A stretch of DNA of 64,000 nt, from assembly GCA_046483305.1 (NCBI GenBank), contig JAWODM010000014.1:59367-123366 (forward strand), in the 5' to 3' direction. This DNA is from Candidatus Krumholzibacteriales bacterium. Its GTDB lineage: Bacteria > Krumholzibacteriota > Krumholzibacteriia > Krumholzibacteriales > WJIX01. The notes below the pieces were generated by a model, which worked only from the letters and a program-made list of their open reading frames with translations, did no database searches and was not told the origin of the DNA. Position 1 is the first letter of the stretch. The number at the start of each line of letters is the position of its first letter. The position numbers and the translations under genes are program-made. This document shows positions 35,022-63,665 of the stretch, one piece after another.

Positions 35022-36683
35022 ATGAGTTCAGTAAATATAAGAGCTCCCAGAGGGAGCGAGATAAGCTGCAAGGGCTGGTTTCAGGAAGCGGCCCTGAGGA
35101 TGCTGATGAACAACCTGGACAGCGAGAACGCAGAGAACCCAGATGAACTGGTAGTATACGGCGGTACCGGCAAAGCCGCCAGAAACTGGGACTGTTATCA
35201 TGCCATAGTCAGAGAGCTGAAGAATCTTGAGAATGACCAGACCCTGCTGATACAGTCCGGGAAACCGGTGGGTGTCTTCGATTCCCATGAAGGCGCTCCC
35301 CGGGTCCTGATCGCCAACTCTCTGCTGGTTCCAAGGTGGGCTACCTGGGAACATTTCTGGGAGCTGGAGACCAAGAACAAGATGATGTACGGCCAGATGA
35401 CGGCCGGCTCATGGATGTATATCGGAACCCAGGGGATACTCCAGGGAACTTACGAGACCTTAGCAGAATGCGCCAGGAAGCACTTCGGGGGAGACCTCAG
35501 GGGGAGGTTCGTTCTTTCCGGCGGGCTTGGCGGGATGAGCGGCGCGCAGCCCCTGGCGGTTACCATGAACGGAGGGGTGTGCCTGATAGTGGAGGTTGAC
35601 GAGAAGCGGATCCGCAAAAGACTGGATACCAGGTACCTGGACGTGATGGAGACAGATCTGGACAGGGCTCTTTCCAGAGTGGACCGGGCGGTCGAAAAAA
35701 AGGAGCCGCTTTCGGTCGGCCTTCTCGGCAATGCCTCCGATGTGTTCAGAGAGCTCGCTGACAGGGGTATAATACCTGACGTGGTTACCGATCAGACCTC
35801 AGCCCACGACGCCCTTAACGGATACATTCCAAGCGGTTACGACGTGGACGAGGCCGCCGAGCTCAGAAGGAAGGATCCGGACAGGTATGTGAAAGAGGCG
35901 ATTGAATCGATAGTCGTTCATGTTCAGGCGATGCTCGATTTCCAGAAGGAAGGGGCGATAGTCTTCGATTACGGCAATAATATCCGGGGCCAGGCCAGAG
36001 AGGGAGGGCTGGAAAACGCCTTCGATTTCCCCGGTTTCGTTCCCGCCTTTATAAGGCCGATGTTCTGTATAGGGAAGGGGCCTTTCCGCTGGCTGGCCCT
36101 CTCCGGCAGGGAAGAGGACCTTTACAGGACCGATGACCTGGTGCTGGAGCTTTTCCCGGAGAAGGAATCACTGGCGAGATGGATTAAGCTGGCCCGCGAA
36201 AAAGTGGCGTTCCAGGGCCTTCCCGCCCGCATCTGCTGGCTGTCATACGGAGAAAGAGAGAAGCTGGGAGTGGCCATGAACGATCTGGTGGCCAGCGGCG
36301 AGATTTCAGCTCCCATTGTAATCGGAAGGGACCATCTGGACAGCGGTTCGGTGGCTTCCCCCTTCCGGGAAACAGAGAGTATGAAGGACGGCACCGACGC
36401 AGTGGCGGACTGGCCGATTCTCAATGCTCTACTGAACGCGGTTAACGGCGCGGCCTGGGTATCGGTGCACCACGGAGGAGGCGTGGGTATGGGCCTTTCC
36501 ATCCATGCGGGGCTGGCAGTGGTGGCCGACGGGACCGAAAAAGGGCGTGAAAAGCTGATAAGGTGCCTGAGGGGAGACCCTGGCACAGGGATTGCACGAC
36601 ACGCTGATGCAGGCTATGAAATAGCCGTTAACAAGGCGAAAGATGCGGGAATAAACATCCCAATGCTTGAAGAGAAAAGCTGA
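35022..36683 (+). CDS. hutU: urocanate hydratase
   Basis: Full-length collinearity with urocanase ([53 protein letters not shown]). Confidence 0.9.
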
Positions 36684-36779: not shown

Positions 36780-38066
36780 TTGGTCGAAACAGTTGATTTA
36801 TTACTTCTTGGCGCCGGACAATTGATAACCTGCCGGGCTGAAAAGCCCCTGAGAGGGAAAGATCTTTCGGATCCCGGCATCATAGAGGATGGTGCGTTGG
36901 CGGTGCGCGATGGCAGAATTATTGCCACGGGTACTACCGGTGAGCTGGAGAGAAAATTCAGGGACAGCGATCTGTCTGAGATAATAGACGCGGAGGGGAG
37001 AGTTGTAATGCCGGGTTGGGTTGACCCCCACACTCACGCTGTATTCCCGGGATACAGGGCCGATGAATACGAAGCCCGTATCAGGGGCGACAGCTACCTG
37101 GAGATAGAGAAGAGGGGCGGAGGGATAAAGAGGACAGTGAGGGATTTGAGAAGTACCGGCGAAGACAGATTATTCGAACTGAGCAGGAGGCGTCTCCTGA
37201 AGATGATAAGGTCAGGAGTGACCTCTCTGGAGATTAAGAGCGGGTACGGGCTGGACCTTGAGAATGAGTTGAAAATGCTTCGGGTGATATCCAGGCTCTC
37301 GGAGAAGCTCCCACTTGATATCGTGCCTACTTTCATGGGAGCTCATCAGAAGCCGGAAGAGGACCCGGATGGTTACGTTAAACTGCTTGTCGAGGATATG
37401 ATACCGAAAGTGGCGGAAACAGGCCTGGCAGAATATATCGACGTATTCTGCGAGAAAGGCGTTTTCGGCCTGGAAGAGACCAGGGAGGTTCTGGATGCGG
37501 GGAAAAAGCATGGATTCGGGCTTAAAGCCCACACTGACGAGATATTCGCCATAGGGGGGACTGAACTTGCGGTTGAAATGGGAGCGGTGTCGGTGGAACA
37601 TCTGACCAGAATAACACCCGGGGGGATAAGGGCGCTTGCAGAGAGCGAAACCATCGGGATAATTCTTCCCGGGACATCCTTCGGCCTGGCTTCCAGCCAT
37701 TTTGCCCCCGCCAGGGAACTGGTGGACTCCGGAGCGGCTATAGCTATCGCCACTGATTTCAATCCGGGAAGCAATCCCTCTTCCTCGATGCCGCTTGCGG
37801 TATCGATAGCATGTTCTCAGATGGGGTTGATCCCGGCAGAAGCGATAAACGCCGCCACCGTGAATGCAGCCTGGTCAATCGGGCTGGGCGATGAGACCGG
37901 ATCCCTGATGGAGGGGAAAAAGGGCGACCTGGTGGTTTACGATATAGAGGATTACCGCGAGATACCGGCAAGGGCGGGCCTGGATCATTCCGTCATGGTG
38001 GTCAAGGAGGGCAGCCTTGTCTGGGAGAGGGAAGGATTCAGGAGAGAGAGTGAGGTTGGAGTGTGA
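36780..38066 (+). CDS. hutI: imidazolonepropionase (amidohydrolase family)
   Basis: Amidohydrolase metal-binding motifs (DPHTHAVF, KAHTDE, ATDFNPGS), ~420 aa, immediately downstream of hutU. Confidence 0.7.
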   Translation: MVETVDLLLLGAGQLITCRAEKPLRGKDLSDPGIIEDGALAVRDGRIIATGTTGELERKFRDSDLSEIIDAEGRVVMPGWVDPHTHAVFPGYRADEYEARIRGDSYLEIEKRGGGIKRTVRDLRSTGEDRLFELSRRRLLKMIRSGVTSLEIKSGYGLDLENELKMLRVISRLSEKLPLDIVPTFMGAHQKPEEDPDGYVKLLVEDMIPKVAETGLAEYIDVFCEKGVFGLEETREVLDAGKKHGFGLKAHTDEIFAIGGTELAVEMGAVSVEHLTRITPGGIRALAESETIGIILPGTSFGLASSHFAPARELVDSGAAIAIATDFNPGSNPSSSMPLAVSIACSQMGLIPAEAINAATVNAAWSIGLGDETGSLMEGKKGDLVVYDIEDYREIPARAGLDHSVMVVKEGSLVWEREGFRRESEVGV

Positions 38067-43099: not shown

Positions 43100-44785
43100 T
43101 TGAAAGGTGAAATAGCAGATCAGCTCCTGAGCAAAAGTCTGATTACACAGGATCAGCTGACCCTCGCCCTAAAGGAACAGGGAAAGTCAGGGGGCAGTGT
43201 AGGTTATAATCTCGTAAAGACAGGGGCTATATCGGAAAAGGCGTTATCGGAATTTCTTTCCCAGGCCTACCAGGTGGAAGCGGTTGACCTGGAAGAGGTC
43301 GATGCTGACGATCACGCCATAGAACTGATCCCGTCGGAAGTGGCCACCAAGTTCCAGGTGGTTCCTGTCAGGAGAGAGGGCAGGACCCTGACGGTGGCGA
43401 TGGCCAACCCTGACAACATCTTTGCCATAGACGACATCAAGTTCATAACCGGCCTGGATGTCCGTCCGGTAGTGGCCACCGAAACGGCCATCAAGAAGAC
43501 CATTGACCGGTTCTATGATTCGGCGGACTCTCTTGCCGATGTGATGAAGGATATGGAAGACGACCTGGAGCTGGTCGAGGATGAAGAAGAAGATGAAAAT
43601 GCCGGGTTCGCCGAAGCGCAGGACGAAGACGCCCCGGTGGTCAAACTGGTGAACTCCCTCATCGCCGACGCTGTTAAAAGGGAGGCCAGCGATATCCATA
43701 TAGAGCCCTTCGAAAAGACTATCAGGGTCAGGTTCAGAATAGACGGTGTCCTTCACGAGATGATGTCTCCTCCCTACAAGATGAAGGCCGCCATTACTTC
43801 CCGCCTCAAGATCATGGCCGAGCTTGACATTGCCGAAAAGCGGGTGCCGCAGGACGGAAGAATAAGGATCAGGATAGGGAAAAAGAAGATCGATCTGCGA
43901 GTCAGCACTCTCCCTACCATATTCGGCGAGAAGGTGGTGATGAGAATTCTGGACAAGAGCAATCTGGAGATAGACCTTACCAAGCTGGGATTTCAGAAGG
44001 ATGCCCTGAAGATATTTACCGATGCGATCGATTCTCCTTACGGGATGGTACTGGTAACCGGCCCCACCGGAAGCGGGAAAACTACCACCCTGTACTCCGC
44101 GCTGAACAGGATAAACGAACCCCACCACAATATTATGACAGCCGAGGACCCGGTTGAGTACAACCTGGAAGGGATCAACCAGGTCAACGTTCATGAGGAG
44201 ATAGGCCTGACCTTTGCCTCGGCGCTCAAGGCTTTCCTGCGCCAGGACCCCAATATCGTGATGGTCGGTGAGATACGTGACCTCGAAACCGGTTCTATTG
44301 CGGTAAAGGCCGCTCTGACCGGGCATCTTGTTCTAAGCACACTCCACACAAACGACGCCCCCAGTACCATTAACAGGATGATCGATATGGGTATTGAACC
44401 TTTCCTGGTCGCCAGCTCCACAAACCTCATCCTGGCCCAGCGGCTGGTCCGGCGGCTCTGCGGCGAGTGCAAGAAAAAGAAGGAGATACATCCCGAGGTG
44501 ATGAATGAGCTGGGGATCACCGATGGCACTCCTTTCGAAATCTATGAACCGGTCGGCTGCTCCAGATGCAGTAACACCGGTTACAAGGGAAGGGCCGGTC
44601 TGTACGAAGTTCTGAATGTATCGGAAATAATCCGGCAGATGGTACTGGACCGCAGTTCCACCGCGGAGATCAGAGAGCAGGCGGTCAAGGAGGGTATGAT
44701 AACCCTGAGAAAGGACGGGATACGGAAAATCAGGGACGGAATTACGTCCGTAGGAGAAGTATTGAAGGAAACCAGCAACAATTAG
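43100..44785 (+). CDS. pilB: type IV pilus assembly ATPase PilB (GspE family)
   Basis: N-terminal GspE_N-like domain, Walker A LVTGPTGSGKTTTLYS, and tetracysteine CGEC...CSRC. Confidence 0.85.
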   Translation: MKGEIADQLLSKSLITQDQLTLALKEQGKSGGSVGYNLVKTGAISEKALSEFLSQAYQVEAVDLEEVDADDHAIELIPSEVATKFQVVPVRREGRTLTVAMANPDNIFAIDDIKFITGLDVRPVVATETAIKKTIDRFYDSADSLADVMKDMEDDLELVEDEEEDENAGFAEAQDEDAPVVKLVNSLIADAVKREASDIHIEPFEKTIRVRFRIDGVLHEMMSPPYKMKAAITSRLKIMAELDIAEKRVPQDGRIRIRIGKKKIDLRVSTLPTIFGEKVVMRILDKSNLEIDLTKLGFQKDALKIFTDAIDSPYGMVLVTGPTGSGKTTTLYSALNRINEPHHNIMTAEDPVEYNLEGINQVNVHEEIGLTFASALKAFLRQDPNIVMVGEIRDLETGSIAVKAALTGHLVLSTLHTNDAPSTINRMIDMGIEPFLVASSTNLILAQRLVRRLCGECKKKKEIHPEVMNELGITDGTPFEIYEPVGCSRCSNTGYKGRAGLYEVLNVSEIIRQMVLDRSSTAEIREQAVKEGMITLRKDGIRKIRDGITSVGEVLKETSNN

Positions 44786-44801
44786 AAATTGAGGAATTTT
44801 T

Positions 44802-45881
44802 ATGAATCTCAGAACTTTACTGAAGGAAATGATCGAAAGAAAGGCGAGTGATCTGCATATTTCAGCGGGCGCGCCTCCGGTGTTCAGGATCGACGGGCAG
44901 ATAGTCAGGTCGTCATACGATAATGTTAATCCGGAAACCTGCAAGCAGATCGCCTACAGCGTTCTCACCGAAAACCAGCAGAAGAGGTTCGAGAATGAAA
45001 AGGAACTGGATTTTTCATTCGGGATTCAGGGACTGTCCCGCTTCAGGGCGAACGTCTTTCAGCAGAGGGGGGTGGTCAGCCTGGCCATCAGGAAGATCCC
45101 TTTTGAAATACTCGATTTTGACAAACTTGGCCTTCCGGAGGCGGTCCGCACGTTCTCCGAAAAACAGAAGGGGCTGATTCTGGTAACCGGCCCCACCGGA
45201 AGCGGAAAATCAACCACCCTGGCCAGCATGATAGATAAGATAAACAACGAGAGGGCCGCTCATGTGATCACCATAGAGGATCCCATAGAGTATATTCACA
45301 AGCACAAGAAGTGTATCGTCAACCAGCGGGAAGTAAAGGCGGATACCGAGACCTTTGCCCAGGCCCTCAAGTATGTTCTCCGTCAGGATCCGGACGTTAT
45401 ACTGATAGGCGAGATGAGGGACCGGGAGACCATGCAGGCCGCCCTGACCATATCCGAGACCGGGCACCTCGCCTTTGCCACTCTCCACACCAATTCTACT
45501 TTCGAATCTATAAACAGGATAGTGGATACCTTTCCCCCCGGCCAGCAGGGACAGGTCAGGGCCCAGCTCGCATTTGTGCTGAAGGGAGTGGTTACGCAGC
45601 AGCTGATACCGCACCTTTCCGGGACCGGAAGGGTACTGGTGGCCGAAGTGATGGTATGTACGCCGGCGATCAGCGCTATCATAAGAGACGACAAGATTCA
45701 TCAGATATACGGTTTGATGCAGGCCGGGCATAAACACGGCATGCAGACCATGAACCAGGCGCTGTTCGCGGCTGTCAGGAACAGGCAGATATCCAAGAAC
45801 GAAGCGCTGGTCAGGAGTACCGACCCGGCTGAACTTACCCAGATGCTGGGAAAGAAGCAGGTAATGAGCGACAGGATATAG
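44802..45881 (+). CDS. pilT: twitching-motility retraction ATPase PilT
   Basis: ASDLHISAGAPPVFRIDG, Walker A ILVTGPTGSGKSTTLASMID, about 359 aa. Confidence 0.9.
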   Translation: MNLRTLLKEMIERKASDLHISAGAPPVFRIDGQIVRSSYDNVNPETCKQIAYSVLTENQQKRFENEKELDFSFGIQGLSRFRANVFQQRGVVSLAIRKIPFEILDFDKLGLPEAVRTFSEKQKGLILVTGPTGSGKSTTLASMIDKINNERAAHVITIEDPIEYIHKHKKCIVNQREVKADTETFAQALKYVLRQDPDVILIGEMRDRETMQAALTISETGHLAFATLHTNSTFESINRIVDTFPPGQQGQVRAQLAFVLKGVVTQQLIPHLSGTGRVLVAEVMVCTPAISAIIRDDKIHQIYGLMQAGHKHGMQTMNQALFAAVRNRQISKNEALVRSTDPAELTQMLGKKQVMSDRI

Positions 45882-45911
45882 TTGAACGGTTCAATCAGGG
45901 AGTGATCAATA

Positions 45912-47123
45912 ATGGCTACTACATTTGTTTGGAAAGGCAAGACGCCGGCAGGTGAGTCCGTCTCCGGTGAATACAACGCCGATGACAAGAATGAGCTGAT
46001 GGGCCATCTCCGGCGCCGGCGGATCATCGTCACCCAGGTCCGCCAGAAGCCGAAGGACCTCAATATCAATATTGGAATCGGGAACAGGATAACTACCAAA
46101 GACCTTGCAATCTTCACCAGGCAGTTCTCCACCATGATAAATGCCGGGCTGCCCCTGGTGCAGTGCCTGGATATTCTATCCAGCCAGATGGAGAAGGAGC
46201 ATTTCAAGAAGGTAGTAACCGAGGTGACGGAGGATGTGGAGTCAGGTTCGACCCTGGCCGAAGCTCTTCAGAAGCACGACTGCTTCAGCGAGCTGTATGT
46301 CAATATGGTCGGCGCCGGGGAATCGGGGGGTATTCTGGACCTGATTCTCAACAGGCTGGCTGTATTCCTGGAGAAAAATGACGCACTGAAGAGAAAGATC
46401 AAGGGCGCCCTGACCTATCCGACCATCATTTTCCTGGTGGCGGGAGGCGCTACTATCTTTATGCTTCTTTTCATTATTCCGACCTTTGCTCAGATGTTTA
46501 CCGATTTCGGAGGAACCCTTCCGCTTCCTACCAGGATAGTGATGGGGCTGAGCAATTTTCTCAGGGCGAACTGGTGGATCCTGCTGATCGCAGTCGCCGG
46601 AGCGGTTTTCGGACTCAGGAAGTACTACAAGACCGAAAACGGGCATTACAGAATCGACAAGTTCATGCTGAAGATCCCGATCCTGGGCGGCGTTATACGA
46701 AAGGGCGCTATCGCTCTTTTCACCAGAACCCTGGGTACCCTTACCGCCAGCGGTGTTCCGATCATCGACGGGCTGGATATTACAGCCAGGACCGCGGGAA
46801 ACAAGGTAATCGAAGAAGCGGTCATGAATACTAAGGAGAGTATCAGCCAGGGTAACACCATCGCGGAGCCCCTGGGCAAAAGCGGGGTGTTTCCGCCGAT
46901 GGTGGTCCAGATGATCGGAGTGGGGGAGCAGACCGGGGCTCTCGACGAGATGCTCGAGAAGGTCGCCGATTTCTACGATGATGAGGTCGACTCCGCTGTG
47001 GACGCTCTCACTTCGGCGATCGAGCCCATAATGATAGTAATAATGGGTGTAGTGGTGGGCGGTATGCTCATCGCCATGTATCTGCCCATGTTCGAACTGA
47101 TTTCTGTTGTCTCGGGTGGTTAA
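45912..47123 (+). CDS. pilC: type IV pilus inner-membrane platform protein PilC (GspF family)
   Basis: Duplicated GspF-type domains, about 400 aa, three TM segments. Confidence 0.85.
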   Translation: MATTFVWKGKTPAGESVSGEYNADDKNELMGHLRRRRIIVTQVRQKPKDLNINIGIGNRITTKDLAIFTRQFSTMINAGLPLVQCLDILSSQMEKEHFKKVVTEVTEDVESGSTLAEALQKHDCFSELYVNMVGAGESGGILDLILNRLAVFLEKNDALKRKIKGALTYPTIIFLVAGGATIFMLLFIIPTFAQMFTDFGGTLPLPTRIVMGLSNFLRANWWILLIAVAGAVFGLRKYYKTENGHYRIDKFMLKIPILGGVIRKGAIALFTRTLGTLTASGVPIIDGLDITARTAGNKVIEEAVMNTKESISQGNTIAEPLGKSGVFPPMVVQMIGVGEQTGALDEMLEKVADFYDDEVDSAVDALTSAIEPIMIVIMGVVVGGMLIAMYLPMFELISVVSGG

Positions 47124-47147
47124 GAAGGAACCAGAGGTAATTCAAAG

Positions 47148-48884
47148 ATGAAAGTAAATCCGCGTGCCGTCAACCTGCAGGACGAAGATAAGATCAGAAA
47201 GATGATCTTTGTCAGGCTGGTGGTAGCCACTCTGGTAGTGGGAGCCGCTACCATAGCGCTCCAGGCCCAGAGCAGGGAGCTGGCCTCGGCCGTCCTCTAT
47301 TCCCTTCTTGGGGTTATATACCTGAGTACCGGAGCTGTCTATCTGGGGCACCGGCGGGGAGTCCCCTTCAAGTTACTGGTCAGTATTCTTATCGGCGTTG
47401 ATATAGCGGTACTGACCCTGATAGTCCATTACAGCGGCGGATCCGAGTCTATCTTTACCAATCTGTACATACTGACCATATTCATGGGGGGTTTTTACTT
47501 CCAGGTTTCCGGCGGGCTGGTAACCTCCCTGCTGGCCGCCACCGCTTATATAATATACACGCTCCTGGAGCTGAAGGGGGGGGTCAGGTCTCCGGAGGGA
47601 GCCATACTGTTCACCCACCAGAACCTCTTCGATTCACTGATCAACGGGTATGTTCACCTGGCTGTGTTTGTCTCCAGCGGGCTGATCAGCGGATATTTCT
47701 CCCGCAGGATTATCAGCAGCAGGGAAATACTTGCCGACCGGGAAGAGGAGATAAAGCAGATCCAGATAAATAACGATTCCATATTCAGGAATATGAGCAG
47801 CGGGCTGGTGGTTATGAACCTGGAGAGAGAAGTTATATCGATGAATCCCGCGGCCAGGAGGATCCTCGGCGTAGATGAAGGAATGGATGTGGAGGGCAGG
47901 CCTCTCGGAGAAGTTATGGACGGGATGGATCCCCTGCTGCAGGAGCTGGTACTGGTCCAGGAGACCGGGATTCAGAAAAAGAGGCATGAGATCGAACTGG
48001 TCAGGCCGGACGGGACGGAACTTCCGCTCGGTATCAGCATATCCCTGCTCATCGGGAGCGGGGGACAGAAGATGGGAGTAATAGCCCTTTTCCAGGACCT
48101 CACCGAGGTACACATGATGAGAAAGAAGGTAAGGCAGTCGGACAAACTTGCCGCTGTGGGGGAGATATCGGCGGCGATAGCGCATGAAATCAGGGCTCCC
48201 CTGGCCTCCATTTGCGGTTCCACCGAGATGCTGAAGCAGGAACTGGAAGTGGACGAAGAAAATATGGAGCTGATGGACCTTATAATAAGAGAGTCCGACC
48301 GGCTGGACGGAATGATCACCGAGTTTCTGGAGTATTCAAAGATACGCCAGCCGGAGTTCGAATCGGTCAATATCGAGAACTGCCTCAGGGAGACCGTAAT
48401 GCTGATCAAGCACGGCTCTCATCTGAAGGACTCCTGTACCCTCACCTTCGAAGCGGAGGCCGGGGGGATCAGGGTTTTCGCCGACGAGCAGCAGATAAGA
48501 CAGGTATTCCTCAATATCGCTCTGAACGCCTGCCAGGCGGTGGAATGCAACGGGAGCATCAATATCGACCTGAAAACCGTGAAGAAGCGTGCGGAGAACG
48601 GCGAAGGGGAAGTGGAGGAGTACGCCCAGGTCAGATTCATCAACGACGGAGAGCCCATATCAGAGAAGGACAGGGCGCATATATTCGATCCGTTTTTCAC
48701 CACCAAGGAGGGCGGTACCGGCCTGGGCCTGGCCACCGCCGCCAGGATAGTGGAAAGCCATTCAGGATCGATTCACGTGGAAAGCAATAATTTCAGGACA
48801 GTATTTACGCTTCTGCTGCCGCTGAAGCATTTCGAGGGTCAGATAGGAATCAAGGAAATACAGAATCAATTTGAGAAAGTTTAG
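47148..48884 (+). CDS. sensor histidine kinase, PilS-like (multi-TM N-terminus, PAS, HisKA, HATPase)
   Basis: H-box ISAAIAHEIRAPLASI, GTGLGLA G-box, six N-terminal hydrophobic helices. Confidence 0.75.
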   Translation: MKVNPRAVNLQDEDKIRKMIFVRLVVATLVVGAATIALQAQSRELASAVLYSLLGVIYLSTGAVYLGHRRGVPFKLLVSILIGVDIAVLTLIVHYSGGSESIFTNLYILTIFMGGFYFQVSGGLVTSLLAATAYIIYTLLELKGGVRSPEGAILFTHQNLFDSLINGYVHLAVFVSSGLISGYFSRRIISSREILADREEEIKQIQINNDSIFRNMSSGLVVMNLEREVISMNPAARRILGVDEGMDVEGRPLGEVMDGMDPLLQELVLVQETGIQKKRHEIELVRPDGTELPLGISISLLIGSGGQKMGVIALFQDLTEVHMMRKKVRQSDKLAAVGEISAAIAHEIRAPLASICGSTEMLKQELEVDEENMELMDLIIRESDRLDGMITEFLEYSKIRQPEFESVNIENCLRETVMLIKHGSHLKDSCTLTFEAEAGGIRVFADEQQIRQVFLNIALNACQAVECNGSINIDLKTVKKRAENGEGEVEEYAQVRFINDGEPISEKDRAHIFDPFFTTKEGGTGLGLATAARIVESHSGSIHVESNNFRTVFTLLLPLKHFEGQIGIKEIQNQFEKV

Positions 48885-48892
48885 TCAGGGAG

Positions 48893-50278
48893 TTGGAATT
48901 CATGGTAAATGGAAAAGTATTAATCGCTGATGACGAGAAGAGTATGTGCAAGTATCTGTCCATTATGCTCAAGAAGGAAGGGTATGAAGTCGAAACCGTG
49001 TATGACGGAAAGGATGCCATAGAGAAGATCAGGGAGGGCGGCCTTGATGTGGTAATAACCGACATCAGGATGAAGGAGGCCGACGGGCTGGAGGTCCTAT
49101 CCGCCGCCCGCGAGGCCGAATCAAACCTTCCGGTGGTGATAATGACCGCTTACGCCTCCCAGAAGACCGCCATAGAGGCCCTGAACAAGGGCGCTTTCTA
49201 TTACCTGGTCAAAAGGGCCGCCAAGAATGACGAGATAAAGATGGTGGTAAAGAACGCTATCGATATGCGCAGGGTAACCAGTGAAAACGTCTTTCTCAAG
49301 AGGCAGCTGAAGGGTAACGGCGATTTCAAGAATATCATAGGCAAAAGCGAGGAGATGCAGAAGGTGTTCGAGAGGGTAAGGAAGGTAGCCAACTCGGACA
49401 GCACCATCCTGATCAACGGCGAGAGCGGTACCGGGAAGGAGCTGGTGGCAAAATCGATACATTACCAGAGCAGGCGCTCCAAGAATGCCTTCGTTTCGAT
49501 CAACTGCGGAGCTCTTCCTGAAAACCTCCTGGAGAGCGAGCTTTTCGGGCACAGGAAGGGAAGCTTCACCGGAGCGATTAGAGAGAAGGACGGCCTTTTC
49601 AAGGTCGCCTGCGGAGGTACCTTCTTCCTTGACGAGGTGGGAGAGACCTCCCCCGCCATCCAGGTAAAGCTTCTCAGGGTCCTGCAGGAGAGAGAAATCA
49701 TCCCGGTGGGAGGGACCAGGCCCATAAAGGTCGATGTGCGGCTGATAGCTGCCACCAACGCCGACCTGGAGGAGAACGTCAAGAACGGCAGTTTCAGGCC
49801 TGACCTCTATTACCGCCTGAATGTAATACCTATCACGATACCCCCTCTGAGGAAAAGACAGAGCGATATCCCTCTGCTGGTCGATCACTTCCTGAAAAAG
49901 GCCTCCGAGAAGACCAATCAGAAGAAGACCATCTCAAAGAAGGCCCTGGAACTGATGGTCGAGTACGACTGGCCCGGCAACGTCAGGGAGCTGGAGAATA
50001 TAGTGGAGCGTGCGATAGTGCTTCAGGAGGGGGACAGGATCATGCCCCACGACCTGCCCGACAAGATCAGGTTCCACTCCAGGTCGAGCAGGAATATCGT
50101 CCTGGACGATACCCAGATGACGCTGGAGGAACTGGAGAAGGAGTATGTGATCTCGGTGCTGGACGAAACCGGATGGCAAAAGAAGAAAGCGAGCGAGATA
50201 CTTGGGATTAATGCTTCCACGTTGTACCGTAAGATTCAGCGTTATGGCCTGAAACGGGAGAAAGAGACTGTCGAGTAA
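48893..50278 (+). CDS. sigma-54-dependent response regulator (NtrC family, PilR-like)
   Basis: Receiver domain (LIADDEKSM...DVVITDIRM), AAA+ sigma-54 activator domain (GESGTGKELVA, GAFTGA-like GSFTGA, ESELFGH) and C-terminal Fis-type HTH. Confidence 0.85.
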   Translation: MEFMVNGKVLIADDEKSMCKYLSIMLKKEGYEVETVYDGKDAIEKIREGGLDVVITDIRMKEADGLEVLSAAREAESNLPVVIMTAYASQKTAIEALNKGAFYYLVKRAAKNDEIKMVVKNAIDMRRVTSENVFLKRQLKGNGDFKNIIGKSEEMQKVFERVRKVANSDSTILINGESGTGKELVAKSIHYQSRRSKNAFVSINCGALPENLLESELFGHRKGSFTGAIREKDGLFKVACGGTFFLDEVGETSPAIQVKLLRVLQEREIIPVGGTRPIKVDVRLIAATNADLEENVKNGSFRPDLYYRLNVIPITIPPLRKRQSDIPLLVDHFLKKASEKTNQKKTISKKALELMVEYDWPGNVRELENIVERAIVLQEGDRIMPHDLPDKIRFHSRSSRNIVLDDTQMTLEELEKEYVISVLDETGWQKKKASEILGINASTLYRKIQRYGLKREKETVE

Positions 50279-55232: not shown

Positions 55233-55264
55233 GGGGTGTTCCGCAGCGGAACACCCCTTTTTTT
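55233..55264 (+). terminator. rho-independent terminator after the PDZ lipoprotein gene
   Basis: ggggtgttcc-gcagc-ggaacacccc followed by ttttttt. Confidence 0.7.
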
Positions 55265-55552
55265 GCCCTTTAACCGGCTGCCGTGATGAGACTGGACCCT
55301 TACGTATTTGAATTGGATTTTCCCCAATATTTCATCAATCAGCCGCAGATGGCAGTTCAGTTACACTGATTCCAGCTCTTATTTTCTGCAGTACAGTATC
55401 GTATGGTTACTCAGTAGAATTACTGTGATGTTTTTGGGGAAACTCCAGGTATTTAAACCTTTGACAGTAACAATAAAGTAGTCTATTTTATTTATCACCG
55501 GAATAGATATCAGGCGGGACATTCCGGGAATTATTAACTGGGAGAGAGAAAT

Positions 55553-56284
55553 ATGGAAGAGAACAGGCAGGAGTTCGAGGTCGATACTGTTAAAGCGGAG
55601 CCTGATAAGAAGTTTCTTGCTTCAATAGCTGACATTTTCGTTGATCCGGGAAAGGTTTTCAACCGTATAGACGCCGGGCTTGAATGGTGGAAGCCGTTCA
55701 TACTGGTAGCTGCTGTCATGATCATCATGGTGTGGGCTCAAGCGCCGGTCAATATGCAGGTAATGTCTCTGAATGAAAGGGGCCTGAGTGAAGAGCAGCT
55801 TCAGATGGCCCTGGACAGAATGGGGACCTTTCAGGTAGTAGGGTATATCGTGGCTCCGATAGCCGCCATTACCATTTACCTGCTCAGCGCGTTGGTGATT
55901 AATATCACCGCCAACCTGATGAGCGGGCGCTCCGATTACAGGAAAGCGCTCAGCCTCTCTATATTTGTTGGCCTGATACCGCTGGTGGAACAGATAATTT
56001 CGGTGGTGGTGGTCCGGATGCGGGGAATAGAGGCTATACAGTCCACCCAGGATGCCCAGATATCTCTCAGCCTGGCTCCTCTTTTTTCGGACGCCGGGAA
56101 TTTTGTCAACTCAATCCTGAAGAGTCTCAGTATTTTCAGTATATGGTATTATATAGTCATGGCCCTGGGTATAGCCGCCATATACAGGATAAATGTCAAG
56201 AAATCCGCGGTTCCGGTGGTTATTCTTTGGATAATTTCCTTCCTGTTCATATATTTAGGTAGTCTGTTCAGCGTGAGCGCGTGA
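55553..56284 (+). CDS. Yip1-family integral membrane protein
   Basis: About 240 aa with five hydrophobic helices after a ~40-aa soluble N-terminus, the typical DUF1282/Yip1 architecture. Confidence 0.55.
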   Translation: MEENRQEFEVDTVKAEPDKKFLASIADIFVDPGKVFNRIDAGLEWWKPFILVAAVMIIMVWAQAPVNMQVMSLNERGLSEEQLQMALDRMGTFQVVGYIVAPIAAITIYLLSALVINITANLMSGRSDYRKALSLSIFVGLIPLVEQIISVVVVRMRGIEAIQSTQDAQISLSLAPLFSDAGNFVNSILKSLSIFSIWYYIVMALGIAAIYRINVKKSAVPVVILWIISFLFIYLGSLFSVSA

Positions 56285-56373
56285 AGGGGTGGCGGCAGGG
56301 AACAGATTTTTTATGATACTGAACTGGAGATTTGCTGGAACTTTTGAAGATTTAAATTCAATGGAGGTCAGGT

Positions 56374-58452
56374 TTGAAGCAGTACAATATCGAAGATTTA
56401 AGAAATGTGGTGTTCGTGGGGCACCAGTCTTCAGGGAAAACATCCCTTTGTGAAGCGATACTTTTCAATACCGGGATTATCAACAGAATGGGAAGCGTTG
56501 AAAACGGCAATACCGTTATGGATTCCGACCCGGAAGAGAAGGAACGTAACATATCGGTTTCGATGAGCATAGCCGCCATCGAAAAGGACGGAAAGAAGAT
56601 AAACCTGATCGATACTCCCGGGTATGCCGATTTCATTGGGCAGATGCTTTCCGGGATAAGTGTCGCTGAAAGCGGCGTGATAGTGATCCCCGCTGACGGA
56701 GGGATTGAAGCCGGTTCCGAGGTCGCCAACAGCTACCTCAGGGATAAGGGAGCCCCCCGTTTCGTATGCGTAAACAAGATGGACAAGGAGCACGCCGATT
56801 TCGATAAATGCGTTCAGGAAGCCCAGAACGTCCTTGGAAAGGAAGTGATGCCGCTGATTCTTCCGGCAGGCAGCGGAGCGCAGTTCAGGGGTGTTGTCAA
56901 TATTCTGGAGAACAAGGCGTATATTTACAGCGAAGGCGGAAAATTCAGCGAGGAGGAAGTCCCCTCCGAACTTGAGGATAAGGTAAATTCTATCCGCGAG
57001 GAGCTTCGTGATTTTGCGGCCGAGAGCGATGATTCCCTGCTGGAGAAGTATCTGGAGACCGGCGAGCTGTCCGGCGAGGAGCTGGTGAGGGGGTTGAGCG
57101 CCGGATGCCGCCAGGGCACCCTGGTGCCGCTGGTGGTGACCTCGGCTGCAGAGAATGTAGGAGTACAGCAGCTTGTCGATATGATGATCAACATGTTTCC
57201 CTCTCCGGCATACTTCGAAGAGGTCAAGGTCCTCAAGGGAGGCGAAGAGACCGCTGTCAGTATAGATCCGGATTCGACTCCTCTGGCCTTTGTGTTCAAA
57301 TCGTATTCCGAGAAGAACGTGGGCAAACTCTCATATCTGAAAGTCCTCTCCGGCAGGATTACCAGCGGTATGGATATGTTCAACTCGACCGCCGAGACAT
57401 CCGTCCGGATCGGGCAGCTGTATTATGCCATGGGAAGCGAGAAGATCGAAACAGACGAAATTTCAACCGGCGATATCGGGGTGGCGGTAAAACTGAAGGA
57501 AGCAAGGGTTAATGATACTCTCTGCGACAAGGACAACCCGGTCCAGATCCCTGAGATAGAATATCCTGAACCTTCCATCAGAACCGGGATCGTGCCCAGG
57601 GATGAAAGCAACATGGACAAGGTCGGTATCGGCCTGAATAAACTGGCTGAAGAGGACCCCAGCTTCACCGTGGAGATCAGCCAGCAGCTGAACCAGACCA
57701 TACTTTCCGGCCAGGGAGAGCTCCATTTCAATGTTATACTGAGCAGGCTCAAGGACCGGCAGGGGGTGGAAGTGGACATGGTGGAACCGGGAGTGGAGTA
57801 TCTTGAGACCATTACCTCGACCAGCCAGGCCCAGGGTAAACACAAGAAGCAGAGCGGGGGAAGGGGCCAGTACGGAGATGTCTGGATCAAGCTGGAACCG
57901 CAGCCCCGCGGGGAAGGGTTTGAGTTCGTGAATGAGATCGTGGGAGGGGTTGTCCCCAGCAAGTTCGTTCCGGCGGTGGAAAAAGGTATAGTCGAAGCGA
58001 TGCAGAAGGGAGTGATCGCCGGATACAGGATGGTGGATGTGCGGGCCACTCTCTACGACGGGACCCATCACAGCGTGGATTCGTCCGAAGCGGCATTCAA
58101 GGCCGCCGGGTCCAAGGGATTCAAGGCCGCGGTAAAGGATGCCAAACCGGTGCTTCTGGAGCCGATAATGGAAGTGACGGTAAGGGTGCCGGAGAATTAT
58201 ATGGGTGATGTGATGGGCGATCTTTCCATGAGAAGGGGGAAGATACAGGGCACCGAACAGGACAACACCATGCAGATAATAAAGGCCCAGGTTCCGCTGG
58301 CTGAACTGTACAGGTATTCCACCTCCCTGAGGTCAATGACTCAGGGGCGGGCCAGTCATACCAGGGTATTCTCTCATTATGAGATAGTGCCTCACGAGCA
58401 GGCGCAGAAGTTAATAGCCCGGGCGAACATAGACGAAGAGGAATCTGATTGA
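56374..58452 (+). CDS. elongation factor G paralog with degenerate GTPase motifs
   Basis: Full EF-G domain order, including domains IV-V (HSVDSSEAAFKAAGS...LLEPIMEVTVRVPENYMGDVMGDLSMRRGKIQG). G1 is GHQSSGKT and switch II reads DTPGY rather than DTPGH. Not in a str operon. Confidence 0.8.
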   Translation: MKQYNIEDLRNVVFVGHQSSGKTSLCEAILFNTGIINRMGSVENGNTVMDSDPEEKERNISVSMSIAAIEKDGKKINLIDTPGYADFIGQMLSGISVAESGVIVIPADGGIEAGSEVANSYLRDKGAPRFVCVNKMDKEHADFDKCVQEAQNVLGKEVMPLILPAGSGAQFRGVVNILENKAYIYSEGGKFSEEEVPSELEDKVNSIREELRDFAAESDDSLLEKYLETGELSGEELVRGLSAGCRQGTLVPLVVTSAAENVGVQQLVDMMINMFPSPAYFEEVKVLKGGEETAVSIDPDSTPLAFVFKSYSEKNVGKLSYLKVLSGRITSGMDMFNSTAETSVRIGQLYYAMGSEKIETDEISTGDIGVAVKLKEARVNDTLCDKDNPVQIPEIEYPEPSIRTGIVPRDESNMDKVGIGLNKLAEEDPSFTVEISQQLNQTILSGQGELHFNVILSRLKDRQGVEVDMVEPGVEYLETITSTSQAQGKHKKQSGGRGQYGDVWIKLEPQPRGEGFEFVNEIVGGVVPSKFVPAVEKGIVEAMQKGVIAGYRMVDVRATLYDGTHHSVDSSEAAFKAAGSKGFKAAVKDAKPVLLEPIMEVTVRVPENYMGDVMGDLSMRRGKIQGTEQDNTMQIIKAQVPLAELYRYSTSLRSMTQGRASHTRVFSHYEIVPHEQAQKLIARANIDEEESD

Positions 58453-58473: not shown

Positions 58474-59229
58474 GTGTCAGGCCATTCCAAGTGGAGTACC
58501 ATAAAGAGGAAAAAGGCGAAGGAAGACGCCAAGCGCGGTAAGATATATACCAAGCTCATTAAGCAGATAGTGATTGCCGCCAAGGAGGGCGGTGGCGATC
58601 CGGAGGCCAACCCGGTTCTGAGAACCGCTGTCCAGAATGCCCGCGACAATAATATGCCGAAAAAGAATATCGCCAAGGCTATTAAGCGTGGCACCGGCGA
58701 GCTTCCCGGAATCAATTACGAACGGTGCTCCTTCGAGGGGTACGCCCCGGGGGGAGTGGCGGTATTCGTCAACTGCCTTACCGATAACCACAACCGGACC
58801 AGCGCCGAGGTCAGGCATATCTTCAATAAGTACAGCGGCCACCTTGGAGAACCTCACTCGGTTTCATACCTGTTTGAGCGGAAGGGGCAGATCGTATTCG
58901 AAGCATCGGAGATGGACGAGGAGACGGTGTACGAAATAGCGTTGGAGAACGGGGCTGAAGATATAAGCCTGGATAACGGTTACTATGAAATAATATCCGC
59001 ACCGGAAAACTTCGAGGCGCTTCATCAGAATATCGTCAAAGCGGGTATTGAATGCGAAACCGCCGAGATAACCCTCATCCCGAATTCAGAGGTTAAGCTG
59101 GACGCTTCTAACGCAGTGGGCGTTCTCAAGCTGCTGGACGCCCTGGAAGACCATGACGATGTGGAGAATGTCAGCTCGAATTTCGATATACCGGATGAGA
59201 TTCTGGAGCAGATACAGGATGAAATCTGA
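58474..59229 (+). CDS. yebC: YebC/PmpR-family transcriptional regulator
   Basis: MSGHSKWSTIKRKKAKEDAKRGKIYTKL N-terminus, about 250 aa. Confidence 0.9.
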   Translation: MSGHSKWSTIKRKKAKEDAKRGKIYTKLIKQIVIAAKEGGGDPEANPVLRTAVQNARDNNMPKKNIAKAIKRGTGELPGINYERCSFEGYAPGGVAVFVNCLTDNHNRTSAEVRHIFNKYSGHLGEPHSVSYLFERKGQIVFEASEMDEETVYEIALENGAEDISLDNGYYEIISAPENFEALHQNIVKAGIECETAEITLIPNSEVKLDASNAVGVLKLLDALEDHDDVENVSSNFDIPDEILEQIQDEI

Positions 59230-59306
59230 ATGATTTTCAACCCGGTCCTCCGCCGTTCGGACCGTGAGACCATGGATATATCTTTTGAAACAGGGATGAG
59301 GACGTT

Positions 59307-59801
59307 ATGTCACTGACGCTCGGTATCGATCCCGGCAGTTACTGTACCGGATACGGACTGGCCCGCTCCGAGGGCCGCAGGAATATCTACGTCGATTCCG
59401 GTGTTATCAGGGTCGGGAAGAACAAAAACAGGGCTGCGCGGCTGAAGGAGATCAAGGAGAAGGTAGACCGGGTGATAGAAATACACGATCCGGATGATGT
59501 GGCTATAGAGGGAATCTTCATATCAAAGAACCCTAAAAGCGCTTTTGCCCTGGGAGAGACCCGGGGGGTAATCCTTCTGGCCGCGGCACAGGCGGGGAAG
59601 GATATTTTCGAATATTCGCCCCGGGAAGTTAAAAGGAGCGTTGCCGGATCGGGCAACGCCCACAAGTCACAGGTAGCCGCCATGATAAGCAAGCTTCTGA
59701 ATCTGGAGCATCAGCCGGAGGTCACCGACGAAACGGACGCTCTGGCGATCGCGTTCTGCCACCTGGCCAGGCGGGCAGGCAGGCTGAAGGGGTTGATCTG
59801 A
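59307..59801 (+). CDS. ruvC: Holliday junction resolvase RuvC
   Basis: LGIDPGSYCTGYGL and ETDALAIAFCH motifs, 164 aa. Confidence 0.9.
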   Translation: MSLTLGIDPGSYCTGYGLARSEGRRNIYVDSGVIRVGKNKNRAARLKEIKEKVDRVIEIHDPDDVAIEGIFISKNPKSAFALGETRGVILLAAAQAGKDIFEYSPREVKRSVAGSGNAHKSQVAAMISKLLNLEHQPEVTDETDALAIAFCHLARRAGRLKGLI

Positions 59802-59802
59802 T

Positions 59803-60420
59803 TTGATAGCGACCATTGAAGGGGTTCTCAGGGCCAGAATGCCCGACAGTATCATTCTGGAAACCGGAAACTTCGGAATACAGGTTTTCGTTCCCGAAAA
59901 ACTGCTGCTGCGTCTCGGCCCGGAGGGAGAACCTCTCCGGCTCTTTACCTACATGCATGTCAGAGAGGATGCCATTACCCTGTACGGTTTCAGCGCCGAG
60001 AGCGAAAAGAGAATGTTCCTGGCCCTGCTGGGAGTAAGCGGAATCGGCCCCAGGGTTGCCATGGGTATCATATCGGCGTCCGGGGCTCCCGAAATAGCGT
60101 CCTTCATCACTTCCGAAGATACCGCCGCTCTGACCAGGTTCCCCGGGGTTGGCAAGAAGACCGCCGAGAGGATCGTGCTGGAGCTGAAGGACCGGCTGGA
60201 GCCGGCCGATTACGGGGTGGAGGAAATGCCCGGGGCCCCCTCTCTGGACAGCGAACTTATCGAAGATGTGGTGGCGGCCCTATGCTCTCTGGGGTTTTCC
60301 CGGAGGAGAGCCGCTATGGCGGTAACCGAGCTTGAACCGGCCGATATATCAGATTCGATGGAGGTGGGGGATATCGTCAGGGAAGTTCTCAGAAGGAACC
60401 CTCCGGGAGGAGTGAGATAG
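59803..60420 (+). CDS. ruvA: Holliday junction branch-migration protein RuvA
   Basis: MIATIEGVL...GVSGIGPRVAMGI HhH motifs, about 205 aa, adjacent to ruvC and ruvB. Confidence 0.9.
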   Translation: MIATIEGVLRARMPDSIILETGNFGIQVFVPEKLLLRLGPEGEPLRLFTYMHVREDAITLYGFSAESEKRMFLALLGVSGIGPRVAMGIISASGAPEIASFITSEDTAALTRFPGVGKKTAERIVLELKDRLEPADYGVEEMPGAPSLDSELIEDVVAALCSLGFSRRRAAMAVTELEPADISDSMEVGDIVREVLRRNPPGGVR

Positions 60421-60422
60421 TT

Positions 60423-61451
60423 ATGGAAAGACCGATCACCGGCCCTGACGCGGCCCCGGAAGAAATCAAGGCGGAATCCCTGCTCCGTCCCAGGACCCTT
60501 TCGGAATTCGTGGGGCAGGAGCGGCTGAAGGAGAACCTGCGGGTATACATAGAGGCCGCCAGGCAGCGCGGGGAACAGCTGGACCACGTACTTCTTCACG
60601 GCCCGCCCGGGCTGGGCAAGACCACCCTGGCCCATATCATAGCCAGGGAGTTGGGCTCCAACATCAACGTGGCCTCCGGGCCGGTATTTCAGAGCCCCGC
60701 CGAGCTCCTCTCCATCCTGACCCAGCTGGAGGAGAGAGATGTGGTATTCATAGACGAGATCCACCGGCTGAACAAGGTGGTGGAGGAGCATCTCTACCCG
60801 GCGATGGAGGAATTCCGCTGTGAGCTGATCGTGGACAAGGGGCCGCACGCCAGGCATTATTCGCTGAATATCGAACCGTTTACCATAGTGGGAGCCACCA
60901 CCAGGGCGGGGATGCTGACTCCCCCCATGAGAAGCAGGTTCGGGGTGGTGGCCCGCCTGGAGTTCTATTCCCCGGAGGAAATTATGGCGATAGTACTCCG
61001 CTCTGCCGGGGTGCTGGGGGTAAAGATAGACGAGCAGGGAGCAGAGGAGATTGCCAAGCGGTCGAGGGGAACACCCCGGATCGCCAACCGGATACTGAGA
61101 AGGGTCCGTGACTTCTCCCAGGTGGAGGGAACCGGAGAGATCGACAGGGAGATAGTGGAATATTCGCTGAACCGGCTTAATATAGACGGGCTGGGCCTGG
61201 ACGAGATGGACAGAAAGATACTGAGGGTCATCGCGGAGCAGTTCTGCGGCGGGCCGGCGGGGATAAAGTCGATAGCGGTGGCGGTCTCGGAGGAAGAGGA
61301 GACCATCGAGGATGTATATGAACCCTTCCTGATACAGAAAGGTTTCGTACAGAGGACAGCCAGAGGAAGAAAGATCACCGGAAGGGGGCTCCGGCATATC
61401 GGCCTGGATCCGTCCAGCTTTGCGGATAAGCAGCAGGACTTTTTCGAGTGA
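60423..61451 (+). CDS. ruvB: Holliday junction helicase RuvB
   Basis: LRPRTLSEFVGQE, Walker A LLHGPPGLGKTTLAHIIA, FIDEIHRL. Confidence 0.95.
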   Translation: MERPITGPDAAPEEIKAESLLRPRTLSEFVGQERLKENLRVYIEAARQRGEQLDHVLLHGPPGLGKTTLAHIIARELGSNINVASGPVFQSPAELLSILTQLEERDVVFIDEIHRLNKVVEEHLYPAMEEFRCELIVDKGPHARHYSLNIEPFTIVGATTRAGMLTPPMRSRFGVVARLEFYSPEEIMAIVLRSAGVLGVKIDEQGAEEIAKRSRGTPRIANRILRRVRDFSQVEGTGEIDREIVEYSLNRLNIDGLGLDEMDRKILRVIAEQFCGGPAGIKSIAVAVSEEEETIEDVYEPFLIQKGFVQRTARGRKITGRGLRHIGLDPSSFADKQQDFFE

Positions 61452-61466
61452 ATGCCCTGATCGGAT

Positions 61467-62525
61467 ATGATGAAGATTGAAGATTTCGATTACGAACTGC
61501 CTGACGAACTGATAGCTCAGTACCCCTCCCAGAAGCGCGAGCACAGCCGCCTGATAGTCTTCCGGCGAAAAAGCGGCAATATATCCGAGACCATTTTCTC
61601 GAATTTCATCAATTATCTTCAGCCCGGCGACCTTCTGGTGATCAACGACACCGAGGTTATCCCGGCCAGAATACTGGGAAACAAGGGCAGCGGCGGCGAG
61701 GTGGAGGTTTTCCTGGTAAGAAGAACCGGCGAGAGGAAATGGGCCGCCCTGGTGAAACCGTCCAGGAGGATCAGGGAGGGAACGGTTATAGAAATCGAGG
61801 GGGGCGAAGACAGTATAACCATAACCGGCGAGATAGGAAGGGGAAGCTGGGAGGTGGAGCTGGGAGGAGAGCTCCCCGAATACGAATTCATCGAGCGTTA
61901 CGGCCACGTGCCCCTTCCGCCCTATATAAAGAGGACGGATGAAGATATAGATTCCAGAAGGTATCAGACGGTATACGCGGAGAGAAAGGGGTCGGTGGCG
62001 GCCCCCACCGCCGGGCTTCACTTCAGCGAGGATATTCTCGGAGCCATCCGGCGGAAGGGATGCATGGTTCTGCCGGTAACCCTGCATATAGGCCCCGGCA
62101 CCTTCAGGCCCCTGGAGAATGAAAAGGTGGAAGATAACCGCCTCTCTCCCGAGGAGTTCAGGATCGACAGGGAGTACTGGGATATAATCAGGATGGCCCG
62201 GCGGGAGAGGCGAAGGGTGATTGCGGTGGGCACCACCACTACCAGGGTGCTGGAATCGATGGCTCACGGGGAATTCACCGAAAGAAGAGAGGAGAATGAG
62301 GGCGGCAGGGAGTATATCTGCGGCTCTACCGGGCTGTTCATCTACCCGGGATTCGAATTCCGGGCGGTGGACGCCCTGCTGACCAACCTGCACCTTCCCC
62401 GCTCTTCGCTTTTTCTGCTGGTAAGCGCCTTCGCGGGCAGGGAGAATATGCTACGGGTATACGAGTGGGCGGTTAGAAGAAAGATCAGATTCTACAGTTA
62501 CGGCGACGTTATGTTCATCACCTGA
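61467..62525 (+). CDS. queA: S-adenosylmethionine:tRNA ribosyltransferase-isomerase
   Basis: FDYELPDELIAQYP, HVPLPPYIKR, VAAPTAGLHFSE. Confidence 0.9.
   Translation: MMKIEDFDYELPDELIAQYPSQKREHSRLIVFRRKSGNISETIFSNFINYLQPGDLLVINDTEVIPARILGNKGSGGEVEVFLVRRTGERKWAALVKPSRRIREGTVIEIEGGEDSITITGEIGRGSWEVELGGELPEYEFIERYGHVPLPPYIKRTDEDIDSRRYQTVYAERKGSVAAPTAGLHFSEDILGAIRRKGCMVLPVTLHIGPGTFRPLENEKVEDNRLSPEEFRIDREYWDIIRMARRERRRVIAVGTTTTRVLESMAHGEFTERREENEGGREYICGSTGLFIYPGFEFRAVDALLTNLHLPRSSLFLLVSAFAGRENMLRVYEWAVRRKIRFYSYGDVMFIT

Positions 62526-63665
<1,140 letters not shown>

Follow-up and report, generated by a model that had tools for sequence, protein, structure and literature searches.

Non-canonical paralogs of the translation factor EF-G make up the EFG II/EF-G2 subfamily, whose signature residues were defined by Margus, Remm and Tenson in 2011 (PMC3150367), and members have been characterized from Thermus thermophilus, Mycobacterium smegmatis and Bacteroides thetaiotaomicron. 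Here, we describe an EF-G paralog of 692 amino acids with five EF-G domains, which is encoded at positions 56374..58452 (+) of a 64-kb stretch of DNA from a metagenome-assembled genome (MAG) of a Candidatus Krumholzibacteriales bacterium; the whole stretch is referred to as the window. A first-pass annotation had presented it as an EF-G paralog in which the catalytic histidine of switch II is replaced by a tyrosine. As set out below, this replacement is genuine, and it is the usual state of the EFG II/EF-G2 subfamily, to which the protein belongs, judged from its sequence.

In T. thermophilus EF-G-2 (PDB 1WDT/2DY1; Connell et al. 2007), switch II reads DAPGYGDF and thus contains a tyrosine as in the Krumholzibacteriales protein. 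T. thermophilus EF-G-2 lacks the active-site histidine as well as the aspartate and the glycine of the cation site, yet it synthesizes poly-Phe, and both an intrinsic and a ribosome-dependent GTPase activity have been reported. It shares 38% identity with the Krumholzibacteriales protein, from which it differs by a TKLD motif, a threonine-containing switch I (HRTTV) and its length of 665 amino acids.

M. smegmatis EF-G2 (MsmEF-G2; PDB 9K0Z/9K10) has a switch II sequence, DTPGYADF, that is identical to that of the Krumholzibacteriales protein. According to a 2026 preprint, His88 of EF-G1 is replaced by Tyr98 in MsmEF-G2, and the H88Y exchange abolishes the GTPase activity of EF-G1. MsmEF-G2 itself has been described as a non-recycling stress factor with minimal ribosome-dependent GTPase activity, which does not stabilize the rotated ribosome. 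In contrast to the Krumholzibacteriales protein, it consists of 709 amino acids, has TKLD in place of NKMD and a non-conserved G5 motif, and has lost the contacts to the sarcin-ricin loop of the 23S rRNA. EF-G2 of B. thetaiotaomicron (PDB 7UVP/8DMF) also lacks the histidine, but carries a serine at this position (DCPGSDDF), a P-loop without histidine (GSSGSGKT), the G2 sequence YGYSV and an insertion of around 25 amino acids after loop I of domain IV, which is absent from the Krumholzibacteriales protein. Papers that cite Han et al. 2023 state that this protein translocates slowly without GTP hydrolysis.

Assignment to the EFG II/EF-G2 subfamily

The gene starts with a TTG codon, which is preceded at a distance of 6 nt by the ribosome-binding site GGAGG (56363..56367, +). 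The deduced protein, hereafter EF-G2, contains the domains GTP_EFTU, EF-G_D2, EFG_III, EFG_IV and EFG_C in this order (Pfam), and antisense open reading frames (ORFs) overlying the gene were treated as frame shadows of the coding region. Its identity to T. thermophilus EF-G amounts to 59% in domain IV, 55% in domain V and 32% in the G core; the five-domain layout with EF-G-like domains IV and V, proposed in the first-pass annotation, is thereby confirmed. An AlphaFold2 model, for which 60 homologs served as input (predicted local distance difference test, pLDDT, 89.4; predicted template modeling score, pTM, 0.84), matches ribosome-bound EF-G with template modeling (TM) scores of 0.87-0.93, the best match being 7pjv_x (0.93), and the solved EF-G2 structures 8dmf, 9k0z_7 and 1wdt with TM scores of 0.91, 0.90 and 0.84, respectively.

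Among the NCBIfam profile hidden Markov models (HMMs), NF009381 gave the highest score for EF-G2 (882 bits; cut-off 583). This model also ranks first for T. thermophilus EF-G-2 (1WDT; 810 bits) and for eight other tyrosine-type EF-Gs from Clostridium, Eisenbacteria, Latescibacterota, Deltaproteobacteria, Aminicenantes, Chlorobiaceae, Nitrospirota and Planctomycetia. For a canonical EF-G encoded in a str operon, the top model is TIGR00484 with 1173 bits; EF-G2 scores 661.4 bits on this model, which is slightly above the cut-off of 659.4 and 220 bits below its NF009381 score. Further EF-G2-type proteins were found in a scan of 80 loci from one genome per species (L002-L081), to which an 8-kb contig of the organism itself (GCA_051746065.1) was added as L001. 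The proteins of L016, L025, L030, L042, L045, L049 and L056 exceed the TIGR00484 cut-off as EF-G2 of the window does, with scores of 661-824 bits for the whole group. Since the cut-off of TIGR00484 is passed and the name of NF009381 does not go beyond 'elongation factor G', the paralogy of EF-G2 is invisible in the annotation. An identical protein of 692 amino acids from a Candidatus Krumholzibacteriales MAG is annotated by NCBI as 'elongation factor G'.

The signature residues point in the same direction. EF-G2 contains the EFG II residues Gly16 and Leu25 (alanine and threonine in canonical sequences), the serine of G2, Gly354 and Lys373 (Gly333 and Lys/Arg352 in 1WDT numbering; alanine and glycine in canonical sequences) as well as Lys491 and Lys492 (Lys471-Lys472; isoleucine or valine and arginine in canonical sequences). 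The motifs AHIDAGKT, RGITI and DTPGH of canonical EFG I are absent from the protein, which has GHQSSGKT, RNISV and DTPGY instead. Phylogeny was assessed by a distance method only: in a neighbor-joining (NJ) tree of 223 sequences, the 18 canonical EF-Gs are separated from all others by one clean split, with EF-G2 and 1WDT on the opposite side, and the split between canonical and non-canonical sequences had a bootstrap support of 100/100 in a subset of 75 sequences including 15 canonical ones. Because HMM scores, tree split and signature residues all agree, the protein is placed in the EFG II/EF-G2 subfamily.

The other families of translational GTPases that were compared could be ruled out. RF3, LepA and BipA do not come into question, as the prfC, lepA and TypA models gave 173, 129 and 159 bits, while their cut-offs are 473, 534 and 757 bits, respectively. 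The KDG insertion of spdEFG1 is missing from EF-G2, whose switch I aligns with that of T. thermophilus EF-G without gaps. An assignment to spdEFG1 or spdEFG2 was rejected, as was the mitochondrial type, since mtEF-G1 and RRF2mt from the PDB reached 350 and 265 bits, compared to 557 bits for bacterial EF-G.

The GTPase center and the loops of domain IV

The phmmer alignment of EF-G2 with T. thermophilus EF-G is free of gaps in the G core and pairs 'vghqssgkt' with 'aahidagkt', 'ernisv' with 'ergiti' and 'inlidtpgyadf' with 'iniidtpghvdf'. Tyr84 (codon TAT, 56623-56625) is thus aligned with the catalytic histidine, and a misreading of the alignment does not account for the loss of this residue. 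The tyrosine is part of the G3/switch II motif DTPGYADF (56611..56634, +). In the G1/P-loop GHQSSGKT (56419..56442, +; canonical AHIDAGKT), Gly16 is the EFG II signature residue, Gln18 replaces the gate isoleucine and Ser19 the aspartate of the cation site. The G2/switch I sequence KERNISV (56539..56559, +; canonical QERGITI) has Ser61 in place of the magnesium-binding threonine, in agreement with the EFG II pattern xxxSx, and Asn59 in place of the glycine of the cation site, which binds a monovalent cation. The G4 motif NKMD (56773..56784, +) is that of canonical EF-G. In domain IV, loop I, GKHKKQSGGRGQYG (57835..57876, +), contains the EFG II signature Lys491-Lys492, and loop II, HHSVDSS (58066..58086, +), has the canonical sequence of the translocase tip, of which His566, Val568, Asp569, Ser570 and Ser571 are invariant, while His565 and Ser567 vary.

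EF-G2 therefore lacks three elements of ribosome-activated hydrolysis in canonical translational GTPases, with Tyr84 instead of histidine, Ser19 instead of aspartate and Asn59 instead of glycine. It retains the nucleotide-binding site, namely GK[T] of the P-loop, the magnesium-binding Ser61, DxPG, NKMD and the SA of G5, and in addition the arginine and isoleucine of switch I and the acidic G' helix. In EF-G, the acidic G' helix is the contact site for L7/L12.

The motifs are strongly conserved among the closest homologs, which comprise the 120 best matches listed (56-100% identity, mostly from Krumholzibacteriota MAGs). GHQxxGKT is present in all 120 of them and D[TS]PGYxDF in 117, the regular expression giving no match in the other 3. 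In an alignment of 60 sequences, G16, H17, Q18, G21, K22, T23, D80, P82, G83, Y84, D86, F87 and N134 are invariant, as are residues of the G' helix and of both tip loops of domain IV, and Ser61 is found in at least 98% of 119 homologs. The invariance of these motif and domain IV residues indicates that the nucleotide pocket is under purifying selection. Gln18 (56425-56427) is shared by all 120 best homologs listed and shows no variation among the 60 aligned sequences, whereas just 19 of 205 non-canonical EF-Gs contain it; it may reflect an adaptation of the GTPase center that is specific to this clade.

These 205 non-canonical EF-Gs belong to the 223-sequence sample used for the tree, in which representatives at 50% identity were combined with the genome loci and with the two Thermus proteins, EF-G and EF-G-2. 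The catalytic position is occupied by tyrosine in 131 of the 205, by phenylalanine in 34, and by aspartate (10), leucine (7), alanine (6), asparagine (5) and serine (4) in others, with histidine in 2. Across this sample, EFG II/EF-G2 proteins have as a rule lost the catalytic histidine, most often in favor of tyrosine. The first-pass annotation had contrasted the exchange with a near-universal DTPGHVDF; the observation is correct but ordinary, because it describes a hallmark of a widespread subfamily that has already been published. The two non-canonical proteins that retain the histidine, P0135 (DCPGHTDF) and P0261 (DTPGHPNY), have EFG II-like P-loops, GQRGCGKTTL and GTFGSGKTTL, respectively. 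Another member of the representative library, P0244, has 1040 amino acids, of which residues 346-1038 form the EF-G2-like region and are preceded by an extension of around 345 amino acids that looks coiled-coil- or transmembrane-like.

Taken together, EF-G2 of the window resembles other EFG II proteins in its five-domain fold, its signatures, the non-histidine residue at the catalytic position and its location outside the str operon. It resembles canonical EF-G (EFG I, TIGR00484) in its overall fold, the sequence of domains IV and V, the G4 and G5 motifs and the acidic G' helix. Compared to most EFG II proteins, its clade is less diverged, as seen from NKMD, the switch I arginine and the similarity of domain IV to that of EF-G1, and is distinguished by the P-loop glutamine (GHQ) and by a linkage to yebC, which are features of the clade.

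Proposed role beside a canonical EF-G

We consider it rather likely that EF-G2 is a fast-evolving second EF-G encoded outside the str operon, which serves as an auxiliary translocase beside the product of a canonical fusA gene. It would bind GTP and enter the ribosomal factor site as EF-G does, and would then drive translocation slowly, with GTP hydrolysis being absent, weak or mechanistically altered, by analogy to the proteins of B. thetaiotaomicron and T. thermophilus. EF-G2 would thus act as an alternative or stress-time translocase alongside a canonical EF-G encoded elsewhere in the genome. The first-pass annotation had called the protein hydrolysis-impaired. This is plausible in view of the EF-G2 proteins of M. 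smegmatis and B. thetaiotaomicron, which lack ribosome-stimulated hydrolysis; however, it is not established, because the Thermus protein hydrolyzes GTP with the same tyrosine, and the tyrosine alone is thus insufficient to abolish activity.

Several observations weigh against the auxiliary translocase or against the assignment on which it builds. EF-G2 stays below the cut-offs of two models for described EF-G2 groups, NF009377 ('EF-G-like protein EF-G2'; 616 versus 890 bits) and NF058620 (Bacteroidota EF-G2; 649 versus 1000 bits). The EFG II signature Thr291 (isoleucine in EFG I) is not found, the corresponding residue being Ser310; since 1WDT has a valine here, this residue is not a strict marker of the subfamily. 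In the 64-kb window, tblastn with the EF-G protein and with E. coli S12, S7 and EF-Tu as queries detected neither a further EF-G gene nor genes for S12, S7 or EF-Tu, and hence no canonical fusA. The three characterized EF-G2 proteins also disagree: the Thermus protein is an active GTPase, the mycobacterial protein is an inactive stress factor, and the Bacteroides protein is inactive and nevertheless translocates, so that a mechanism cannot be transferred to the Krumholzibacteriales protein with confidence. The clade is known from sequences, and its mechanism would follow by analogy only.

The mycobacterial protein provides a different model, in which EF-G2 would be a stress-specific regulator that binds non-rotated 70S ribosomes or 50S subunits without hydrolyzing GTP and takes part in neither elongation nor recycling. 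The common switch II sequence DTPGYADF, the structural similarity to 9k0z_7 and the reported minimal GTPase activity and stress role of MsmEF-G2 are in line with such a function. We nevertheless regard it as unlikely, as EF-G2 stays below the NF009377 cut-off and has kept NKMD, the SA of G5, the arginine and isoleucine of switch I and the canonical-type loops of domain IV, unlike MsmEF-G2; because of these retained features, EF-G2 appears to be closer to the translocating members of the subfamily than to MsmEF-G2. A further model holds that EF-G2 is the sole or primary EF-G of the Krumholzibacteriota, which, if true, would mean that a whole phylum translates without the canonical catalytic machinery of GTPases, using a translocase that has no catalytic histidine. 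The well-conserved clade and its near-canonical domains IV and V would fit this model, and so would the lack of a canonical fusA in the window and in the ±10-kb flanks of the orthologous loci. On the other hand, EF-G2 carries EFG II signatures and does not reside in a str operon. Within the scanned loci, S12-S7 is located immediately upstream in 14 of 14 histidine-type loci (AHIDAGKT/DTPGH), whereas S12, S7 or EF-Tu was found within 10 kb in none of the 66 non-histidine loci among L002-L081, which makes the stand-alone location a property of the family. The locus scan also revealed EF-G2 proteins of the same subfamily in cultured Clostridium species, which are known to possess a fusA gene in the str operon. 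In a survey of 305 genomes published in 2011, a single EFG gene was always of the EFG I type (PMC3150367). We therefore consider it very improbable that EF-G2 is the only EF-G, and a canonical fusA is very likely present elsewhere in this MAG.

Ribosome protection had been suggested in the first-pass annotation. Proteins such as Tet(M) and Tet(O) belong to the same superfamily, and EF-G2 matches the tet_protect models weakly, which would fit a role in ribosomal protection or in another kind of antibiotic resistance. The scores, however, are far below the cut-offs (344 versus 775 bits for NF012153 and 224 versus 1100 bits for NF033148), much lower scores than with NF012153 were obtained with the models for Tet(M), Tet(Q) and Otr(A), and Tet(M) from the PDB gave 199 bits compared to 557 bits for EF-G. 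Together with the EF-G-type loops of domain IV and the housekeeping operon described below, this renders a resistance function hardly credible; in the comparison with the Tet, RF3 and LepA families, which all remained below their cut-offs, EFG II/EF-G2 was the best match. Finally, CAT and TAT are only one nucleotide apart, and Tyr84 might in principle stem from a sequencing error or from a decaying pseudogene. The ORF is intact, however, the tyrosine is shared by 117 of the 120 best homologs listed and is invariant in the 60-sequence alignment, and the P-loop and switch I changes recur together with it. Such conservation, which extends to the residues of the motifs and of domain IV, excludes both a sequencing error and gene decay, and the probability of an artifact is practically nil. 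An auxiliary translocase of the EFG II/EF-G2 type thus remains the reading that we prefer.

The yebC operon and the surrounding window

The location of the gene outside the str operon and next to yebC, which had already been seen in the first-pass annotation, is confirmed by the absence of S12, S7 and EF-Tu genes from the window and by the start of yebC 21 nt downstream of the EF-G2 stop codon. The genes are arranged in the order yip1-like, EF-G2, yebC, ruvC, ruvA, ruvB, queA and tgt, with intergenic gaps of 1-89 nt. The yip1-like gene (55553..56284, +) encodes a membrane protein of the Yip1/YknW family (Pfam Yip1; below the cut-off of NCBIfam YknW_fam), and its position upstream of EF-G2 is conserved in loci of Krumholzibacteriota and Latescibacterota. 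yebC (58474..59229, +) encodes a member of the YebC/PmpR/TACO1 family, as identified by Pfam and by NCBIfam NF001030 (334 bits; cut-off 243). It is followed by ruvC (59307-59801, +; NCBIfam ruvC, synteny and tblastn), by ruvA (59803-60420, +) and ruvB (60423-61451, +), both assigned by synteny, tblastn and their ORFs, and by the tRNA queuosine modification genes queA (61467-62525, +; Pfam Queuosine_synth) and tgt (62538-63665, +; Pfam TGT). EF-G2 is probably co-transcribed with yebC-ruvCAB-queA-tgt. A promoter-like site (TTGACA-17-TATTTT; 55461..55489, +) upstream of the yip1-like gene, which is preceded by a strong terminator-like hairpin (55233-55257), is a possible start of the operon. These elements are consensus matches only, as are a weak terminator-like hairpin between yebC and ruvC (59262-59275, +) and a second listed one inside yip1 (56084-56100); the consensus scan gave no strong hairpin within the yip1-to-tgt cluster. 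Neither Rfam families nor tRNAs were detected in the window, so that there is no evidence for a leader RNA from these scans.

yebC is located directly 3' of the EF-G2 gene in 31 of the 81 loci (L001-L081; for instance among L002-L045 and in L072), the gap being 2.4 kb in L038 and 22-196 nt in the 30 others. The linked loci cover at least six phylum-level lineages and derive from Krumholzibacteriota, Latescibacterota, UBP1, Eisenbacteria, Nitrospirota, Planctomycetia and a MAG labeled as Clostridia, whereas EF-G2 loci of the Clostridium type lack the linkage. Since the yebC-linked EF-G2 proteins do not make up one exclusive clade in the NJ tree, a single ancestral linkage is not demonstrated. 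YebC has been described as a translation factor that relieves ribosome stalling at proline-rich stretches (PMC12234827, PMC11990639), and the YebC papers and the review that were searched do not mention a linkage to EF-G. One might speculate that EF-G2 and YebC form a functional pair on slow or stalled ribosomes, although we consider this doubtful.

The remainder of the window contains a cluster of genes for very large secreted proteases (5000-8914, +; 10034-13258, +; 22314-29678, -), which comprises a C25 (gingipain-like) peptidase of 1304 amino acids, an M6-like peptidase of 1074 amino acids and a subtilase of 2454 amino acids with MAM-like domains and the type IX secretion sorting domain Por_Secre_tail. 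An ORF of 1122 codons without a Pfam match (16119-19487, +) overlaps the start of a gene for a POTRA-domain protein (19453-21126, +) by 35 nt, and the two may represent a TamB/TamA-like outer-membrane assembly pair. The region 43100-50278 (+) encodes a PilB-type ATPase (T2SSE/MshEN) along with two proteins of type IV pilus regulation, namely a sigma-54 response regulator and a PilS-like histidine kinase. In addition, the window contains the hut genes for urocanase (35022-36683) and an imidazolonepropionase-like protein (36780-38066), thiC (31114-32442) and part of dnaE (65-2494).

For the annotation of EF-G paralogs, the protein is a reminder that a tyrosine in place of the catalytic histidine is the normal state of EFG II/EF-G2 proteins rather than a rare aberration. 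The interest of the subfamily lies in translocation without GTP hydrolysis, as described for Bacteroides in the papers citing the original work, and in the action under stress or starvation in mycobacteria. The recurrent EF-G2-yebC operon joins two auxiliary elongation factors and provides a lead that can be tested, rather than a result. With NKMD, a canonical domain IV and the P-loop glutamine, the comparatively undiverged Krumholzibacteriales clade would offer a useful comparison for the substitutions that switch off ribosome-activated hydrolysis.

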